Shown one piece after another: positions 11,061-57,649 of a stretch of DNA of 64,000 nt. Positions within the stretch are counted from its first letter, which is position 1. Every line of letters starts with the position of its first letter. The notes beneath the pieces were generated by a model. That model was not told where the DNA came from and ran no database searches. It was given only the letters and a program-made list of their open reading frames with translations. Position numbers and translations under genes: made by a program. This DNA is from an uncultured Candidatus Saccharibacteria bacterium (GTDB taxonomy: Bacteria > Patescibacteriota > Minisyncoccia > Sungbacterales > JACQCQ01), in assembly GCA_964494945.1 (NCBI GenBank), contig CAZBTX010000002.1, positions 38,696 to 102,695 on the forward strand. Reading direction: 5' to 3'.

Positions 11061-12224
11061 CTAATCTACTTCACGCCGCAAATGCTCAAGGAACGGTTCT
11101 TGTAGAACGTCCATATAAGATTGCCTGAAAAGTTCCATTATTTCTTCAAAAGAAATTTTATTTTTGACGGGAGCAAATTCATGTAATTTGTGCAAAGCAA
11201 CAATCGCAGTAAACATATCTTTAGCGTAGGTGGTTTTGGGTTTACCTTCAAACCGTTCAAATAAATGTTCGTCTATACCATCAAAACCGTGAGGAGAGGC
11301 TTTGACGGCATCAATAATCTCGGAAAGGTCAGATTCCTCTGGATATCCCCGAGGGCGCTCAACTGAATCCAAATCTATAATTCTGCAATCAAGCGTTATA
11401 TTATGGCGGGTAAGATACCCATGCGCAAAACCAAGGGTATGCATTCTGGCTACGTTTTCGCCAAGCGTATTTGCAAACCATTTAACATATTCTATTGGAG
11501 TAAACTCTTGTTCCGGTATCTCCAACTCTTGACTTACCATGAGCCGCGCATCCTCGAAAGAGTTGCGAGTGGGAGTTTTATACTTCGGATCAACTATGGA
11601 TAGATCGGCGATTCGCTCTCGCGTGCCGAAAGCGCGGATTTCCAAAGCAGGGTCGGAACTTAGAGGAAGTATTAATAGTTTCTTGGCTTCTTCAATCGAT
11701 ATCTTTTCTTGCGGTTCATTTCTTGTGAAATTGGTAACAATTTCTTTTAATTTAGTTATCGCAATAACACGATATGTTCTTATCCCACTTGATGAAAACG
11801 CTTCTGCCATTGAAGCGTCTTTTAAGGCAATAGCGTAATCGAGTATCCCACGCACAACTCCTTCACGAACCTCGTGAACAGGGTTCACTAAAAGCCCGCC
11901 GTCCCAGTATGTGAGGCTGCCAAGTCCTTTGATGTCAACATCGCGATATTTTTCTCCCTTATCATCCTCAAAAATTACTTGCCCAAGAATGGCGGAACGA
12001 CCATGACCCACCACGCCCTCAACTGTAGTATCTTTGGATTCTTCGTGAGTAGTTGCAAAAATACCAAGTTTAGTCGGTTTCCCCTCTTCCACGTCAAAAG
12101 GGGCATGGATGTGGGGATTGACCCATGCGACTTCATTTTTTACTTCTACTGCGGGAATGCGTTCCATTTTCGCTTCCCGCTTCCCCGCGCCTATTGGCAA
12201 TTCCGAGGATTGTTCTAAACTCAT
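11061..12224 (-). CDS. hypothetical protein with protein-kinase-like catalytic motif
   Basis: HGYLTRHNITLDCRIIDLD resembles the RIO/Kdo-kinase HGDLxxxNI...IDF catalytic loop. Nothing else is recognisable. Confidence 0.35.
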   Translation of the reverse strand: MSLEQSSELPIGAGKREAKMERIPAVEVKNEVAWVNPHIHAPFDVEEGKPTKLGIFATTHEESKDTTVEGVVGHGRSAILGQVIFEDDKGEKYRDVDIKGLGSLTYWDGGLLVNPVHEVREGVVRGILDYAIALKDASMAEAFSSSGIRTYRVIAITKLKEIVTNFTRNEPQEKISIEEAKKLLILPLSSDPALEIRAFGTRERIADLSIVDPKYKTPTRNSFEDARLMVSQELEIPEQEFTPIEYVKWFANTLGENVARMHTLGFAHGYLTRHNITLDCRIIDLDSVERPRGYPEESDLSEIIDAVKASPHGFDGIDEHLFERFEGKPKTTYAKDMFTAIVALHKLHEFAPVKNKISFEEIMELFRQSYMDVLQEPFLEHLRREVD

Positions 12225-12387
12225 ATAAATGCTTCAACTAGTTAAATTCTCGAAAGTCCAATTTGGCAAAGAATATTGAAAAATGCATTTAACCACACTG
12301 ATAACAATTTCAAGTTTTTCAGTTCGCAGTGTAAACTACTGAAATTCTAGCGAATTCCAGTTTGGGCGGCAAATTATTTGAAAAAAC

Positions 12388-12440
12388 AAAAGAGATGACC
12401 CGCTGTTCGCTTTAGCTACTAGGCGGGTCATTGGGCTGTC
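12388..12440 (-). terminator. rho-independent terminator downstream of 12461-12835 gene
   Basis: Minus-strand stem atgacccgc/gcgggtcat is followed by ctcttttgtttttt. Confidence 0.55.
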
Positions 12441-12460
12441 GAGGGAGTCTATCCTCCACA

Positions 12461-12835
12461 CTAGTTCAGAGCATACTCCCTACGGAGTAGGGGGCTGATC
12501 ATCATGATGAACCACACGAGCAGGTAGCCCATCACGAACGGGAGAATGGTGTAGATAGCGCCGGTCGTGCCGACCTCGAAGATTGACTTCATTCGCATGA
12601 CGAAGGGGGCACCGAACGTCACCCCCGCCATCGTCCCCACCACGACGGTGAAGACGTAAGTCGCGGAGAGGTTCGGCGAGAACCCCACCACGGCGAGGCC
12701 GAGCGCCGAAGCAAGCACGAGTAGGATTTGAGTCCCCCGCGTGAGCCAGGGGAGCAGGCCGGCCTCCCCGATCGCCGAGAACAGATCGACGGGCTTACCC
12801 ATATGCTTCTCCTTTCGTTCCTGCCTGCCCTTCAA
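12461..12835 (-). CDS. small hypothetical membrane protein (3-4 TM), GC-rich island
   Basis: Hydrophobic helices. AAGGAG precedes the internal MGKPVDLF start at 12804. The leader is strongly structured. Confidence 0.45.
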   Translation of the reverse strand: MKGRQERKEKHMGKPVDLFSAIGEAGLLPWLTRGTQILLVLASALGLAVVGFSPNLSATYVFTVVVGTMAGVTFGAPFVMRMKSIFEVGTTGAIYTILPFVMGYLLVWFIMMISPLLRREYALN

Positions 12836-13117
12836 TTAACTCAGGGCCAGGCCTTCGGAACATATTGCCGCAGTCTACGGCAACAAAGAAGAAACTAACC
12901 CCTTAACTCCCTCTTTGTTGCCGTAGAATATAGCTTATTTTAGGGTGCTAAGTTTCTAGTTGAATAGTAGCATATATATAGAAAAAGTCAAGGGGCCATG
13001 CCTCGTGGCGCAAAATGCGCCGTAAGGCAACCAAAACGTACGAAAAAGTGCGCGAGTTCCAAGCAGTACTCCGCGCCCTCAATCCCCCGTCCCGCTTGTA
13101 GTGGGAGCGGGGAGTTG

Positions 13118-13651
13118 TTATTTTATGAAGTACTTTCTTATGAGAAACTCCGTGATGCTTCCGAAAACGAGACCGATTACGGCCCCGCCGATTATATCAG
13201 TGGGCCAATGTACCCCCGCCATGACTCTGGCAACGCCGATCAAAAGCGCGGCCAAAGCCAGAACGTAAGCAGATTTTCTGTGGTAGAACCAAAAACTGGC
13301 CGCCAGCGAGAAAAAGAAAGCCGCGTGCCCCGAGGGGAACGAAGAACTGGCTTCATGCGGAATCAGGCGCAGAGTCTCGCCGAGTAACGCGAAGGGACGA
13401 GGCGAGAAAATCCATAAACGAATAATCTCCACCACGCCAAAACGTACGATCAAAGCTGCGGCGTAGGCGGCTGCGACTTTTTTTACGGCCTTACTGTGAC
13501 GCCGCTCCGTCTCCCAGAAAATAACCAGCGGCGCCAAAGCCGCGAGATACGGCAGCCAGCGCGCTATGAAAATCACAAGCGTATCAAAATAGTAATCAAC
13601 GCCCGCTAATCCGTTTAACCAAATAAAAATTGTTTGATCAAACTGGGTCAT
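13118..13651 (-). CDS. PAP2-family phosphatase (undecaprenyl-diphosphatase / BcrC-like)
   Basis: PAP2 motifs PSGH and SRVMAGVHWPTD are present. The protein is membrane-associated. Confidence 0.65.
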   Translation of the reverse strand: MTQFDQTIFIWLNGLAGVDYYFDTLVIFIARWLPYLAALAPLVIFWETERRHSKAVKKVAAAYAAALIVRFGVVEIIRLWIFSPRPFALLGETLRLIPHEASSSFPSGHAAFFFSLAASFWFYHRKSAYVLALAALLIGVARVMAGVHWPTDIIGGAVIGLVFGSITEFLIRKYFIK

Positions 13652-13713
13652 GGATACAGCGCTTGAAAAGCATCATTAGTCACTATAGTTACTATTTATT
13701 CACTGATCTGCTC

Positions 13714-13745
13714 ACTGTATCAGTAGGACGTCCTACTGATACAGT
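13714..13745. promoter_or_regulatory. 32-bp perfect palindrome with TAGGACGTCCTA core upstream of PAP2 gene
   Basis: actgtatcagtaggac/gtcctactgatacagt. Lies between the yerC-like stop and the PAP2 start. Confidence 0.5.
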
Positions 13746-13804
13746 ACGATGCCGGACTTTCACAGCCCACACTATACACTTCCGGTAAGGCCCACTCTAC
13801 GGCG

Positions 13805-14185
13805 CTAGCTTCTTATCTGTGCCGACGCGCCCAGAATCCGTTCTACTGCTTTGATCACTTGTTGGCCCTGTGACTCTTTAAAGAACTGACTAAACACCTT
13901 CCGATAACCTTCGCCTGACTTAAAAAGTTCCCGTTGAATAATGTGCACGGTAGTTTTGCTTATTTTCAGAACACGGCATATCGCGCCGTAACTATAACCA
14001 TGTTGCAGCAACACTGCTACCATCAGCCGTTTGGCCAGCATAATTTTTTCGGTATGGGTAAGAAGATTATCGAGGAAGCGGCGCAGTGGCTTCTCGTCGT
14101 TAATCTTCGCAAGAGTCCTCACAAGAGCGTCGGCGATCTGATGCTCCATCTCGCGTGAAAGCTGATTTTGAGATACTTTAGGCAT
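13805..14185 (-). CDS. TrpR-like DNA-binding protein YerC/YecD family
   Basis: C-terminal HTH GYSYGAICRVLKISKTTVHIIQR is typical of the YerC family. Confidence 0.6.
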   Translation of the reverse strand: MPKVSQNQLSREMEHQIADALVRTLAKINDEKPLRRFLDNLLTHTEKIMLAKRLMVAVLLQHGYSYGAICRVLKISKTTVHIIQRELFKSGEGYRKVFSQFFKESQGQQVIKAVERILGASAQIRS

Positions 14186-14210
14186 ACACCAATATTAATT
14201 AAAACCGACT

Positions 14211-14240
14211 ACTGTTACAATAGGACGTCCTACTGTAACG
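14211..14240. promoter_or_regulatory. near-perfect palindrome with the same TAGGACGTCCTA core in the yerC-like promoter region
   Basis: actgttacaataggacgtcctactgtaacg. One arm mismatch. Confidence 0.5.
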
Positions 14241-14273: not shown

Positions 14274-15092
14274 CTAAGACCTGGAAGCTAGGACGACGAG
14301 ATTCTTAAAAATATGCGCGATAGTTAATGGTCCAACACCGCCGGGCACCGGAGACAGCCAGCCATCTTTGGACTTTAAGCTTTCGGCGTCAGCGTCCCCT
14401 TTTAGAGAACCGGCGTCCATAGCAGTTCCCGCATCAATTATAACGGCGCCGTCACTCACCATGTTCCCACGAATAAGTCCCGGCTTACCGACACCGGAGA
14501 TAATTACATCCGCTTTTTGCAACTCTTGCCCCATGTCTTTTGATTCTTCCGTAAGCACGGCGAACGGCAAGTTTTGTGACAAAAGCCAGAGTGACACGGG
14601 CCGCCCCACGAGGCGCCCCGCGCCGAGAATTACGATTTTTTTTCCAACTAAGTTAATCTGTTGGCTGCCCAGTAGTGTTTTGACGGCCGCGACCACCGGC
14701 GGCAGTATTTTGGACCTCCCCGCCGCTAACGCCCCCAAGGACTTCTGGCTCAAACAATCTATGTCTTCCGCTTCGGAAATAGAGTTTAAAACGTACTGGG
14801 CGTTAACATTTCTGGGTAGAGGCAATTGCACTATCCAGCCATCATGCTCGGACTTTTTGACCAGTTCGGCGAGGCGGCGGCGCAGGGCCTTAGAATTTTC
14901 AGACGCTAAACTATAATGTTTCACTGAAACTCCCAGCTCGTGTCCTCTTTTTTCTTTTTCCGTGATAAATCTCTGTGAGATCTCATTCTCACCTATGGAA
15001 ACTATACCGAGCGAGAGACGCTTACTACCTATAAGAGTTTTTGTTTCTTCCAAAACTGAATCCGCGAGTGCCCCGCCGTTAAAAAAATTCAT
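14274..15092 (-). CDS. folD: methylenetetrahydrofolate dehydrogenase/cyclohydrolase
   Basis: Rossmann motif GAGRLVGRP and C-terminal VPGGVGPLT. Confidence 0.75.
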   Translation of the reverse strand: MNFFNGGALADSVLEETKTLIGSKRLSLGIVSIGENEISQRFITEKEKRGHELGVSVKHYSLASENSKALRRRLAELVKKSEHDGWIVQLPLPRNVNAQYVLNSISEAEDIDCLSQKSLGALAAGRSKILPPVVAAVKTLLGSQQINLVGKKIVILGAGRLVGRPVSLWLLSQNLPFAVLTEESKDMGQELQKADVIISGVGKPGLIRGNMVSDGAVIIDAGTAMDAGSLKGDADAESLKSKDGWLSPVPGGVGPLTIAHIFKNLVVLASRS

Positions 15093-35286: not shown

Positions 35287-35372
35287 CCGGGACCTCCTTC
35301 TCGTGAAATTGGCTCACTAACTTACTTAAGGAAGGGTTAGCGAAACTAGGACGTGTTAAAGTTAAAGGTAGC

Positions 35373-38818: not shown

Positions 38819-39601
38819 TCATATTTTTCTACCCAAAACCAGCGTCAGCAAAAATATCCCCGCGCTGGCAATGATCACCGCCGGCCCTGCGGCAACACCC
38901 CAAAGATAAACGGCTCCAACGCCAAGCATTACCGAAACGGCCGCGAAGGCCATGCTGATAATACCAAAACTATAAAGATTTTTCGCTACGTTCTTGGCCG
39001 CAGCCGCCGGTATTATGGTTAAAGTTCCCATAAGTAGCGTCCCCACGAACTTGATGCCGAGCGCCACCACTAAGGCCAGCATGAGAAGAAATACGAAATT
39101 GGCCAACTGAACGCGCAACTTGGAAGCATGCCATAAATCTGGAGCGGCGATGGAAAACATGATGCGTCGCGAGATTAAAACAGTTATGACAACTACTGCC
39201 AATGATGAAGCTATTGTAATCCAGGCCTCCAGCGGGGTAATTTTTGTTAGGTCGCCGAATAACGCTTCCAGAAGTTCCGGCTCGGGAGTTAAGAGAATCC
39301 CGGCAGCTAATGCTGCCGAAAATAAAACTCCCACAATGGCATCAATCGGTAAATTGGTTCTCTTCTCAAGTCCTGATATCAAAACTGCCGCTAAAAGCAA
39401 AAAAGCAAATGCTCCGATAAAAGGATTTAGATTAAATATGAGCGCTAGGGCAATTCCCGGCAGAGCCACGTGAGACAAGGCATCGGACACCAGGGACATC
39501 CGTTTCATTATCATAAAAACGCCTAAAAAACCGGCGGCGACCGCTGTCCCGAGCCCGGCCATTAAGCTGTAAAAAAGATTTGAATCAAGAAATTGGCTCA
39601 T
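38819..39601 (-). CDS. znuB: metal (Zn/Mn) ABC transporter permease
   Basis: Topology and motifs of the ABC-3 family. Confidence 0.65.
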   Translation of the reverse strand: MSQFLDSNLFYSLMAGLGTAVAAGFLGVFMIMKRMSLVSDALSHVALPGIALALIFNLNPFIGAFAFLLLAAVLISGLEKRTNLPIDAIVGVLFSAALAAGILLTPEPELLEALFGDLTKITPLEAWITIASSLAVVVITVLISRRIMFSIAAPDLWHASKLRVQLANFVFLLMLALVVALGIKFVGTLLMGTLTIIPAAAAKNVAKNLYSFGIISMAFAAVSVMLGVGAVYLWGVAAGPAVIIASAGIFLLTLVLGRKI

Positions 39602-56267: not shown

Positions 56268-57649
56268 ATATCTTTTTTCTTTTTCAACACCGCTTGGTTT
56301 TCTTGGTCGGCCCTAGGTTGGTAATATTTCCTCCCGCGCAATTTCTCCGGCAAATGTTCCTGCGAAACTTTAGCATCCAAAAAATCATGGGCATATTTAT
56401 ATCCTTTGTGATATCCCAGATCTTTCATGAGCTTAGTTACCGCATTCCTTAAATGTAGCGGGACGGGCAAAGCGCCGTGTTCTTTTGCGTCAGACAACGC
56501 GGCCAAAAGTCCAGTATACGAAGCGTTGGACTTCGGCGCCAAAGCCAGATAGGTCGCGCCGTGCGCTAAGTTGATCATGGCTTCCGGCATCCCCACATGC
56601 TCCACGGCTTCTGCTACAGCAATAGCTACCACTAATGCCGTTGGCAGGGCGTTTGAAATATCTTCCGAGGCAAAAATTATCATGCGGCGCGCAATGAATC
56701 TCGGGTTTTCTCCCGCCTCCACCATGCGCGCGAGCCAATACAAAGCCCCGTCCGGATCCGAATCGCGCATGGATTTGATGAAGGCCGAGATGACGTTATA
56801 ATGCTCCTCGCCTTTTTTGTCGTATCTTATGGCTTTTTTCTGGAGGGCATCCTCCACCATCTTTTTTGTAATCTTTATACTCTTAGCGGCATCTTTGCTC
56901 ACCGTCTTATTCTCTAATTCGCGCGAATTAGAGAATGCGGTATTCGGGGTGGAGAGAACAATAAATTCCAGCGCATTCAGCGCCACTCTAGCATCTCCGT
57001 CGGCAAATCCAATCACAGCGTGCTTGGCGTCCTCGTCCAACTTGGCCTTGCGCGTTCCTAATCCACGCGCCAAGTCGGAAAGTGCTCTATCAATAATATT
57101 TTCAAGCGCATCATCAGTAAGCGGTTCTAAAACCAAAACCATGGAACGGGAAAGTAGAGGCGAGTTAAGTTCAAAAGAAGGATTTTCGGTGGTGGCACCG
57201 ATTAAAATAATCGTGCCGTTTTCCACGTAAGGCAAAAAGGTGTCCTGCTGGGCTTTGTTGAAGCGGTGGATCTCGTCAACGAATAAAATGGTTTTGCGTT
57301 TTTCAAACTTCAGTCGCCTTTTGGCGTCTTCAATCAGTTTGCGCAGCTCCGGGACGCCGGAAGTGGCCGCCGAAAACGGCTGAAAAAATCCTTTGGTCTT
57401 TTCCGCGATGATGCGCGCCAGCGTAGTTTTGCCGGTTCCCGGCGGACCCCACAAAATCACCGACCGCAACTCGTCTTTTTCAATGGCTGTTCGCAAGGGC
57501 TTCCCCTTCCCCACAATCTCATCCTGCCCGTGAAAATCGCCGAAATCCCGCGGCCGCATGCGCTCGGCCAACGGCTCCATGCCTTTTATATTTTCTTCAA
57601 ATAAGTCAGTCACAGTGAAACTATTATACTCCCGCCGTCCCGAAGGCAT
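56258..57649 (-). CDS. rarA: replication-associated recombination protein A (AAA+ ATPase) carrying in-frame palindromic insertion
   Basis: GPPGTGKTT Walker A and MgsA_C region. An FSNSRELEN insert is encoded by the 28-bp palindrome. Confidence 0.75.
   Translation of the reverse strand: MPSGRREYNSFTVTDLFEENIKGMEPLAERMRPRDFGDFHGQDEIVGKGKPLRTAIEKDELRSVILWGPPGTGKTTLARIIAEKTKGFFQPFSAATSGVPELRKLIEDAKRRLKFEKRKTILFVDEIHRFNKAQQDTFLPYVENGTIILIGATTENPSFELNSPLLSRSMVLVLEPLTDDALENIIDRALSDLARGLGTRKAKLDEDAKHAVIGFADGDARVALNALEFIVLSTPNTAFSNSRELENKTVSKDAAKSIKITKKMVEDALQKKAIRYDKKGEEHYNVISAFIKSMRDSDPDGALYWLARMVEAGENPRFIARRMIIFASEDISNALPTALVVAIAVAEAVEHVGMPEAMINLAHGATYLALAPKSNASYTGLLAALSDAKEHGALPVPLHLRNAVTKLMKDLGYHKGYKYAHDFLDAKVSQEHLPEKLRGRKYYQPRADQENQAVLKKKKDIKK
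56909..56936. repeat. 28-bp perfect palindromic element inside rarA
   Basis: attctctaattcgcgcgaattagagaat. Confidence 0.85.

Follow-up and report, generated by a model that had tools for sequence, protein, structure and literature searches.

The E. coli Trp repressor (TrpR) binds an operator that overlaps the promoter of its own gene, and the protein needs a small-molecule corepressor. Other repressors act through pairs of like operators. The lac operators O1 and O2 lie 401 bp apart and are bound by one repressor, with one site at the promoter and the other downstream. For lambda CI, the OL and OR operators flank the immunity region; in lambdoid phages the repressor gene lies between operators, and specificities co-vary from phage to phage. 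CcpA, CodY and PurR have roadblock sites, promoter-less operators within transcribed regions that can stop elongating polymerase. To our knowledge, almost nothing is known about transcriptional control in bacteria of the Candidate Phyla Radiation (CPR, or Patescibacteria), which have tiny genomes and few regulators. Here we describe a TrpR-family regulator gene that is bracketed by two matching palindromes in an uncultured Candidatus Saccharibacteria bacterium (GTDB lineage Sungbacterales). The gene lies between folD and a gene for a PAP2-family phosphatase in a 64,000-nucleotide stretch of contig CAZBTX010000002.1 (assembly GCA_964494945.1), referred to throughout as the window.

The best sequence and structure matches of the window protein are to proteins of the YerC type. 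YerC of Firmicutes is HisR, a histidine-dependent repressor that also occurs in other phyla (PMC9413887). HisR binds 20-bp palindromes of the form cacTTTA-N6-TAAAgtg, in which the half-sites are 6 bp apart, and about half of the hisR genes have a site upstream, i.e. are autoregulated (PMC9413887). The window regulator shares the fold and the Pfam family of HisR, together with a predicted palindromic operator of two half-sites 6 bp apart and a predicted autoregulatory site upstream. However, HisR proteins are shorter than 100 residues and lack a basic C-terminal tail, whereas the CPR proteins have about 140 residues with an MPKVS.N N-terminus and a P.KGS....RRW tail. The core of the CPR sites, CA(A/G)TAG-N6-CTA(C/T)TG, also differs from the HisR half-sites and is extended to 24-32 bp, and the CPR sites bracket the regulator gene, whereas HisR sites form a dispersed regulon. 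The window locus shows neither the HisR operator consensus cacTTTAnnnnnnTAAAgtg nor the linkage to his genes by which HisR is recognised (PMC9413887). No his genes are found among its neighbours, which are folD and PAP2 in the window and genes for M50 protease, ScpA, RNase H or RecJ in relatives.

E. coli TrpR is likewise a helix-turn-helix (HTH) dimer of the same fold (template modelling score, TM, ~0.7), and its Thr83 aligns with the residue that varies most in the CPR recognition helix. In contrast to the CPR loci, trpR has just one operator, with no second copy past the gene, and the CPR proteins have a hydrophobic residue in place of Arg84 of TrpR. The likeness to lac and lambda, which consists in two similar operators separated by a few hundred bp, is purely mechanistic: the CPR proteins are unrelated to LacI or CI in sequence or fold, the genes here are all co-directional with no divergent promoters, and a CPR oligomer larger than a dimer would be hypothetical. 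A promoter-less downstream copy between the regulator and PAP2 genes fits the roadblock repressors, but the CcpA, CodY and PurR sites serve global regulons and the copy described here belongs privately to the cassette of the regulator itself, where it is conserved. By analogy, the locus would work like an autoregulated repressor of the TrpR/HisR type with an auxiliary operator, for which lac O1/O2 and lambda are the nearest mechanistic parallels. We consider it probable that the locus is a self-bracketed repressor cassette, which combines autorepression with a second operator that serves as a loop partner and/or as a roadblock gating PAP2.

Paired palindromes around the regulator gene

A first, sequence-only reading of this DNA had placed a perfect 32-bp palindrome between the regulator stop codon and the start of PAP2, and a near-identical one at 14211-14240 in the promoter region of the regulator. 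The former holds in full, with 16/16 matching arm pairs. The latter is a real site with generously drawn ends: 14214-14239 is palindromic (12/13 arm pairs) and the remaining positions are non-palindromic flanks. Both palindromes contain the 12-mer TAGGACGTCCTA as an exact common core, and the 18-mer CA[G/A]TAGGACGTCCTACTG is common to both with one difference. The downstream palindrome starts 59 nt past the regulator stop codon and ends 62 nt ahead of the PAP2 ATG, while the regulator ATG lies 28 nt beyond the end of the upstream palindrome. The two sites are 497 bp apart, centre to centre (Table 1).

These are the only exact matches to TAGGACGTCCTA in the 64 kb of the window, as a search for further core sites, proposed with the sequence-only reading, made clear. 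Allowing 2 mismatches gave one more match, at 35347, against a chance expectation of 1.06. The family-level motif CARTAG-N6-CTAYTG likewise matches exactly at the same two sites only; at 1 mismatch there is a third match at 56620, inside a 488-aa open reading frame (ORF) and without extended symmetry (chance expectation 0.26; three or more matches in 0/100 shuffles). We therefore rejected 35347, which is at chance level, and 56620, which lies within a long ORF, as additional operators.

We then compared the layout with that of homologous loci, designated by L numbers. From a genome-collection scan, a metagenome scan and exact look-ups, both of the first homolog-search matches and of divergent members, 46 loci with homologs were collected and reduced to 33 distinct loci. 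A profile search of 1.84 billion cluster representatives supplied the divergent members, and eight of them enter the layout count. The same search puts the family at no fewer than 847 clusters at 50% identity (E <= 1e-10), so the 33 loci checked stand against at least 847 clusters. A palindrome just upstream of the regulator gene and a matching one just downstream were found in 30 of the 33, across proteins whose measured identities to the window protein span 21% to 73%. The exceptions are L031, which has no palindrome pair and in which the regulator stop codon overlaps the next gene; L035, in which the downstream copy is degenerate; and L038, in which the contig ends 80 nt past the stop codon.

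The match between copies is specific to the locus. When the two flanks of a locus were compared with each other, upstream against downstream, the best ungapped match scored at least 16 in 17 of 19 representatives, compared to a mean of 7.2 and a maximum of 12 for shuffled flanks, and high scores between different loci occurred only where the palindromes are related. Each locus has exactly two copies, with none elsewhere in the 3-6 kb of flanking DNA that was fetched. The palindrome sequence itself varies among lineages, with TAGGACGTCCTA, TAGGCCGGCCTA, ATAGACTAGTCTAT, ATAGACCGGTCTAT and GATAGTATATACTATC among the forms seen. Examples of the palindromes are GTACCAATAGACTAGTCTATTGGTAC (L003), GTACAATAGACCGGTCTATTGTAC (L010, L015 and L021), TATCGATAGTATATACTATCGATA (L019), AATAGTTCGGTTAACCGAACTATT (L008), AGTATACATGTATACT (L007) and TTAACATACAGTACTATATAGTACTGTATGTTAA (L044). 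Two paralogs of a single metagenome-assembled genome (MAG; CAYJUX01, ERP125453_co1_304) each have their own palindrome, ATCAATGGTATATACCATTGAT in L002 and ACAGTAGGCCGGCCTACTGT in L004, and lie in different contexts, folD-X-PAP2 and tlyA-X-M50 protease, respectively. These palindromes are consistent with orthogonal repressor-operator pairs. The sequence-only reading took the two window sites for cognate operators, and the matching, lineage-specific pairs lend that prediction strong comparative backing. Both palindromes are very probably binding sites of the regulator encoded between them.

All of the homologous loci apparently come from CPR/Patescibacteria, judging from the named records, which are Sungbacteria, Levyibacteriota and MAGs labelled Saccharibacteria. 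In the literature searched, whose coverage leaves out most subscription journals, we found no description of this CPR TrpR-like subfamily or of the bracketed layout; nothing combined CPR, Patescibacteria or Saccharibacteria with TrpR, and the HisR study (PMC9413887) was the sole relevant paper.

Table 1. Coordinates of the regulator locus in the window.
Feature	Position	Strand	Remarks
folD	14274-15092	minus	
Upstream operator (predicted)	14214-14239	none	GTTACAATAGGACGTCCTACTGTAAC; 26-bp near-palindrome, core 14221-14232
-35-like hexamer TTGTAA (inferred)	14215-14220	minus	promoter-proximal (right) arm of the upstream palindrome; read from sequence
-10-like hexamer TAATAT (inferred)	14192-14197	minus	17 nt after TTGTAA, 6 nt before the ATG
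TrpR-family HTH regulator gene	13805-14185	minus	126 aa; PF01371
Spacer	13746-13804	minus	regulator stop codon to downstream palindrome
Downstream operator (predicted)	13714-13745	none	ACTGTATCAGTAGGACGTCCTACTGATACAGT; perfect 32-bp palindrome
PAP2-family membrane phosphatase gene	13118-13651	minus	177 aa; PF01569; co-directional, downstream of the cassette

The regulator protein and the symmetry of its sites

A hypothetical protein from a Candidatus Sungbacteria MAG (P0001) has the same sequence as the window regulator (100% identity). Residues 19-100 pass the threshold of the Trp_repressor family PF01371 (39.4 bits versus 27, E 6.6e-10), whereas the protein misses the equivalog cutoffs of TIGR02531 (YerC/YecD, i.e. 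HisR; 33 versus 42.2 bits) and TIGR01321 (TrpR proper; 16.5 versus 67.25 bits). It therefore belongs to the Pfam TrpR family and to neither the HisR nor the TrpR equivalogs, and the label "YerC-like" given by the sequence-only reading is right only in the looser sense. A profile built from 18 homologs matches the YerC-like structures PDB 3kor, 3frw and 3g1c with E values of 2e-9 to 5e-7. The AlphaFold (AF2) model, which has seven helices and a mean predicted local distance difference test score (pLDDT) of 79.8, matches the same three structures best (TM 0.72-0.81 when normalised to the target) and E. coli TrpR next. On this model, the protein is predicted to have the all-helical TrpR/YerC fold with a helix-turn-helix.

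The alignment of the CPR homologs (A1) shows features at both ends of the protein. Most homologs have ~141 residues and end in a basic tail, TLPVKGSPSSMRRWKRAL, with the general form P.KGS....RRW. The window regulator lacks this tail, as does L010. The spacer downstream of its stop codon has weak nucleotide similarity to the tail-coding region of L001, and we tentatively suggest that 13746-13804 represents decayed tail codons, the tail having been lost through a premature stop; an attempt to reconstruct the lost tail from the spacer was not conclusive. A similar truncation is seen in L010 and L011 (122 aa), where the gap between stop codon and palindrome is likewise long, at 68 nt. At the other end, M-P-K-V-S-x-N is invariant or nearly so in the Sungbacteria-type group and recognisable as M-[PSATG]-[QKR]-[VI]-S in the majority of the highly divergent members. 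Because third codon positions vary here, the constraint acts on the protein, and this N-terminus may be a DNA-contacting arm.

Within the recognition helix, a hypervariable residue (SKTTV-H/F/W/Y/S/N) aligns with a Ser of HisR and with Thr83 of TrpR, a position that contacts DNA (PMC9413887). The identity of this residue tracks the outer bases of the half-site: loci with H have T(T/G)ACAG, those with F or W have TATCAA, and those with Y, S and N have GTACAA, TACCAA and G(T/G)(T/C)CAA, respectively. The association is suggestive only, since it is confounded with phylogeny.

To describe the sites themselves, we made an ungapped alignment (A2) of 34 of them, all of the Sungbacteria-type subfamily. 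Variation is seen in the centre and at the outer positions, whereas CA(A/G)TAG, the inner half-site, hardly changes, nor does its complement. Changes on both arms leave the dyad symmetry intact at 14 of 16 position pairs, and 84.9% of the cells are complementary, compared to 68.7% after shuffling partners and 29-45% in slid controls. The arm mismatches (17 GT/TG, 12 AC/CA and 22 transversions) show no bias toward G:U wobble pairs, and the L005 group keeps a non-complementary centre of 6-8 nt in both copies. These two observations indicate that selection acts on a symmetric duplex site rather than on RNA pairing. In L045, compensating changes distinguish the copies, with CCATTAC...GTAATGG downstream and CCAATAC...GTATTGG upstream.

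A few loci depart from the simple pattern. In L039 (1950-2050 compared to 1460-1530) the downstream palindrome is followed by ATG GCA CAA GTA AGT AAA AGA CCA (MAQVSKRP), which duplicates the first eight codons of the regulator itself and then decays. This trace of tandem duplication or gene conversion hints at how a second operator arises or stays matched. The two copies of L005, like those of L044, show no difference over 28-36 nt, a stretch that takes in the non-palindromic centre or flanks. The sites L035:2440-2500 and L037:2440-2500, and also the downstream site of L037, are composite: two CCAATAC units in direct orientation precede two GTATTG units in inverted orientation (CCAATACACCAATAC...GTATTGTTGTACTG). 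Their form suggests that two dimers may bind in tandem, a behaviour known for TrpR.

Probable promoter overlap, the downstream copy and competing explanations

The upstream copy lies where an autoregulatory operator would be expected. In the window the order is TTGTAA-N17-TAATAT, 6 nt and the ATG, matching 8/12 consensus positions; our promoter scan of the window scored this arrangement below threshold and did not report it. Relatives have -10-like hexamers 6-9 nt from the ATG, and some of them have evident sigma-70 promoters, with the upstream palindrome placed over the core elements. In L042 (TTGACA-N17-TATCAT, 8 nt, ATG) and L040 (TTGACA-N18-TATCAT, 9 nt, ATG) the upstream palindrome covers the spacer and the -10 element. 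The right arm of the palindrome supplies the -35-like element in L043 (TTGAAG-N17-TGgTAATAT) and in L001 (TTGTAA-N17-TATAAT, 8 nt, ATG), while in L010, L015 and L023 TACTAT stands at the right edge of the palindrome, 6 nt ahead of the ATG. In the window and in L004, a single asymmetric base pair of the upstream site creates the TTG of the -35-like hexamer; the downstream sites have CTG there instead. The position of the upstream copy over -35/-10-like elements, just ahead of the start codon, supports autoregulation, as the sequence-only reading had proposed. From the geometry we infer that the window regulator has a weak promoter and a leaderless or nearly leaderless mRNA.

The downstream copy follows the regulator rather than any particular neighbour. 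It begins 0-10 nt past the stop codon in many full-length homologs and overlaps the last codons or the stop codon in L007, L008 and L046. Where this can be judged, the other half of a promoter is missing: there is no -35 in L040 and L042 and no -10 in L043. In the window the promoter-proximal arm of the downstream site reads CTGATA rather than TTG.., and hence has no -35-like element. Most loci have a co-directional gene next, and which gene this is depends on the orthogroup. PAP2 follows in 7 loci with the order folD-regulator-PAP2 (the window, L001, L002, L005, L016, L019 and L020, the last assigned by N-terminal similarity only). Elsewhere the next gene encodes an M50 (RseP-type) protease, after tlyA and the regulator (6 loci), ScpA (3 loci), RNase H (2 loci), or RecJ, ComEC or a family-1 glycosidase (a single locus each). 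In L007, L035 and L040 the next called gene is convergent. The promoter-less form of the downstream copy, its position at the stop codon and the varied and even convergent genes that follow it indicate that it is part of the regulator cassette. At the same time, each orthogroup is stably linked to one downstream gene, and gating should therefore matter for that gene. This linkage supports, without proving, control of PAP2 in the window. The claim of the sequence-only reading that the two operators form a compact regulon of the regulator and PAP2 thus survives in part: control of PAP2 is plausible, whereas a dedicated PAP2 regulon is at odds with a downstream copy that is not PAP2-specific and has no recognisable promoter.

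In the mechanism that we propose, the 126-aa protein would bind as a symmetric dimer to half-sites of the form (T)A(T/C)CA(G/A)TAGGAC in both operators. Transcription would start at or just ahead of the regulator ATG, and the upstream operator, by overlapping the -35-like element, would shut off synthesis of the regulator when occupied. The downstream operator could cooperate with the upstream one through a DNA loop of ~500 bp, could hold a protein roadblock that stops polymerases between the regulator gene and PAP2, or could do both. With either device, PAP2 expression would be gated by the same repressor and a ligand. Across loci the operators are 447-567 bp apart, which is near the length at which DNA loops most easily.

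Several points weigh against this interpretation. The inter-operator spacings show no periodicity and hence no helical phasing, and a loop and a roadblock are indistinguishable in silico. The promoter assigned to the window rests on 8/12 matches that the scan left unreported, and promoter calls of this kind are fragile because AT-rich palindromes easily mimic -10 and -35 hexamers. Duplication or gene conversion, as in L039, helps to keep the copies alike, which would weaken co-variation as proof of shared binding. Without the conserved basic tail, the window protein might be impaired. Finally, the site search covers 64 kb of the genome, and sites elsewhere may exist and make the regulon larger.

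We also considered other explanations for the paired palindromes. The downstream copy could be a classical operator in a separate PAP2 promoter, such that the regulator controls its own promoter and that of PAP2. The order folD-regulator-palindrome-PAP2, which is kept in 7 diverged loci, agrees with such an arrangement, and several full-length homologs offer candidate elements for it. In these homologs, a -10-like hexamer made up of the last codons and the stop (CTATAA, TTATAA or CTATAG) precedes the palindrome by 4-10 nt and is itself preceded, at a distance of 17 nt, by a -35-like hexamer that contains TGG (CTGGAA-N17-TATAAT in L003; TTGGCG-N17-TATAAA in L015). With such elements the last codons would contain an internal promoter and the operator would cover roughly +1 to +30, which is possible for some loci; the window itself has TATAGT between the stop codon and the palindrome. 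However, these candidates coincide with conserved codons (RRW...L-stop) and are absent from L002, L004 and L005. The promoter and terminator scan detected no promoter-like site on the minus strand at 13652-13804, and the same palindrome precedes unrelated and convergent genes in other loci. Moreover, in the ScpA group (L028, L030 and L033) the next ATG is only 3-6 nt past the downstream palindrome, which leaves no room for a promoter. We regard a separate PAP2 promoter as rather unlikely. Regulators of the L003, L015 and L001 type end in ...RRW(K/R)xALxxL-stop over their ~10 last codons, with the -10-like hexamer formed from the Leu and stop codons and matching TATAAT perfectly in L003, and the embedded -35/-10 pair could be either an internal promoter or a coincidence of codon conservation.

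The palindromes could instead act as RNA or single-strand hairpins that terminate or insulate transcription, stabilise mRNA or couple translation of the downstream gene. Both window sites do fold stably (-26.1 and -14.8 kcal/mol, with z-scores of about -5), the closeness of downstream copies to stop codons, and in the ScpA group to the next ATG (3 nt from the end of the palindrome), would suit such a role, and co-variation that keeps symmetry is equally expected of a hairpin. Yet the bases that follow the two window sites on the minus strand, GAGCAGATCA and AGTAGTCGGT, contain no U-tract, and the terminator scan was empty at 13714-13745 and 14214-14239, so we rejected Rho-independent termination. 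The upstream palindromes of L040 and L042, which cover the spacer and -10, would not be transcribed from that promoter. The lack of wobble bias and the non-complementary centre of the L005 group also argue against pairing in RNA, and a hairpin function need not make the copies alike, yet they match in 30 loci. A hairpin role is accordingly improbable in our estimation. It also seems quite improbable that the downstream copy is a functionless leftover of a tandem duplication of the 5' region, kept similar by gene conversion. The run through the first eight codons in L039 and the extended identity in L005 and L044 are what such a remnant would leave, but the layout persists in 30/33 loci down to 21% protein identity, similarity is confined to the palindrome in nearly all of them, and compensating changes preserve a dyad symmetry of their own in the downstream copies, as in L045. 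In addition, repeats of 24-32 bp that lie 500 bp apart are poor substrates for sustained conversion. Lastly, the palindromes might be terminal repeats of a mobile cassette, recognised by a transposase-type HTH domain. Genomic contexts vary over the family, and the regulator has weak HTH similarity to IS630/Tc1-type transposases (HTH_23, HTH_SB and NF033545, E 0.0018). That similarity is below threshold (NF033545, 17.8 bits versus a cutoff of 100) and confined to the HTH of a 126-aa protein with no catalytic domain. No locus has more than two copies, the rest of the 64 kb has none, and synteny within orthogroups is stable while the palindrome diverges, which indicates vertical descent. We rejected the IS630/Tc1-type transposon on the grounds of sub-threshold similarity and stable synteny, and a mobile cassette of any kind is very hard to credit.

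Surroundings of the cassette and implications for CPR bacteria

The product of the gene downstream of the cassette is predicted to be a PAP2-family phosphatase (PF01569, E 8.5e-20, 71.3 bits versus a cutoff of 27.2). It resembles undecaprenyl-diphosphatases of the YbjG/BcrC type but stays below their equivalog cutoff, with 80 bits for NF008813 against 229. A terminator-like hairpin, complete with a T-run (13005-12989, minus strand), lies about 110 nt past the PAP2 stop codon. A good sigma-70-like promoter, TTGACT-16-TACTAT with an upstream TG (12991-12964), overlaps this hairpin and precedes the gene at 12461-12835. The hairpin and promoter at 12964-13005 therefore mark a recognisable unit boundary after PAP2, and there is none among folD, regulator and PAP2. 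A G+C-rich inverted repeat, TCCCGCTTGTAGTGGGAGCGGGG, lies directly past the PAP2 stop codon at 13090-13112 and scored as terminator-like on the plus strand only, where no gene ends. Past PAP2, Pfam gave no match at E <= 0.01 for either of two further minus-strand ORFs (11061-12835), one of 387 aa and one of 124 aa that probably encodes a membrane protein. A weak tblastn match at 38916-39140 was rejected as a second paralog; it falls in a 260-aa integral-membrane ORF beside an ABC ATPase-like gene.

These loci define a large and apparently undescribed TrpR-fold subfamily whose predicted cognate operators can be read from the DNA on both sides of the gene. They offer dozens of ready protein-operator pairs for testing, together with a candidate specificity residue at the position equivalent to Thr83 of TrpR. 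For the window, the prediction is that a cell-envelope PAP2 phosphatase would be controlled by a ligand-sensing repressor. The conserved promoter-less 3' operator suggests that control by looping or roadblock is built into the cassette. CPR bacteria may use this second operator to gate expression inside their long co-directional gene arrays, in which recognisable terminators are few. A broader extension, which we put forward tentatively as a possibility short of an expectation, is that the family comprises hundreds of diverged self-bracketed cassettes across the CPR, each a ligand-controlled loop or roadblock valve in such arrays, with specificities that diversify fast and paralogs that are orthogonal. 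If true, this architecture would be one that has not been described for any transcription-factor family, and it would provide a natural library of orthogonal repressor-operator pairs.

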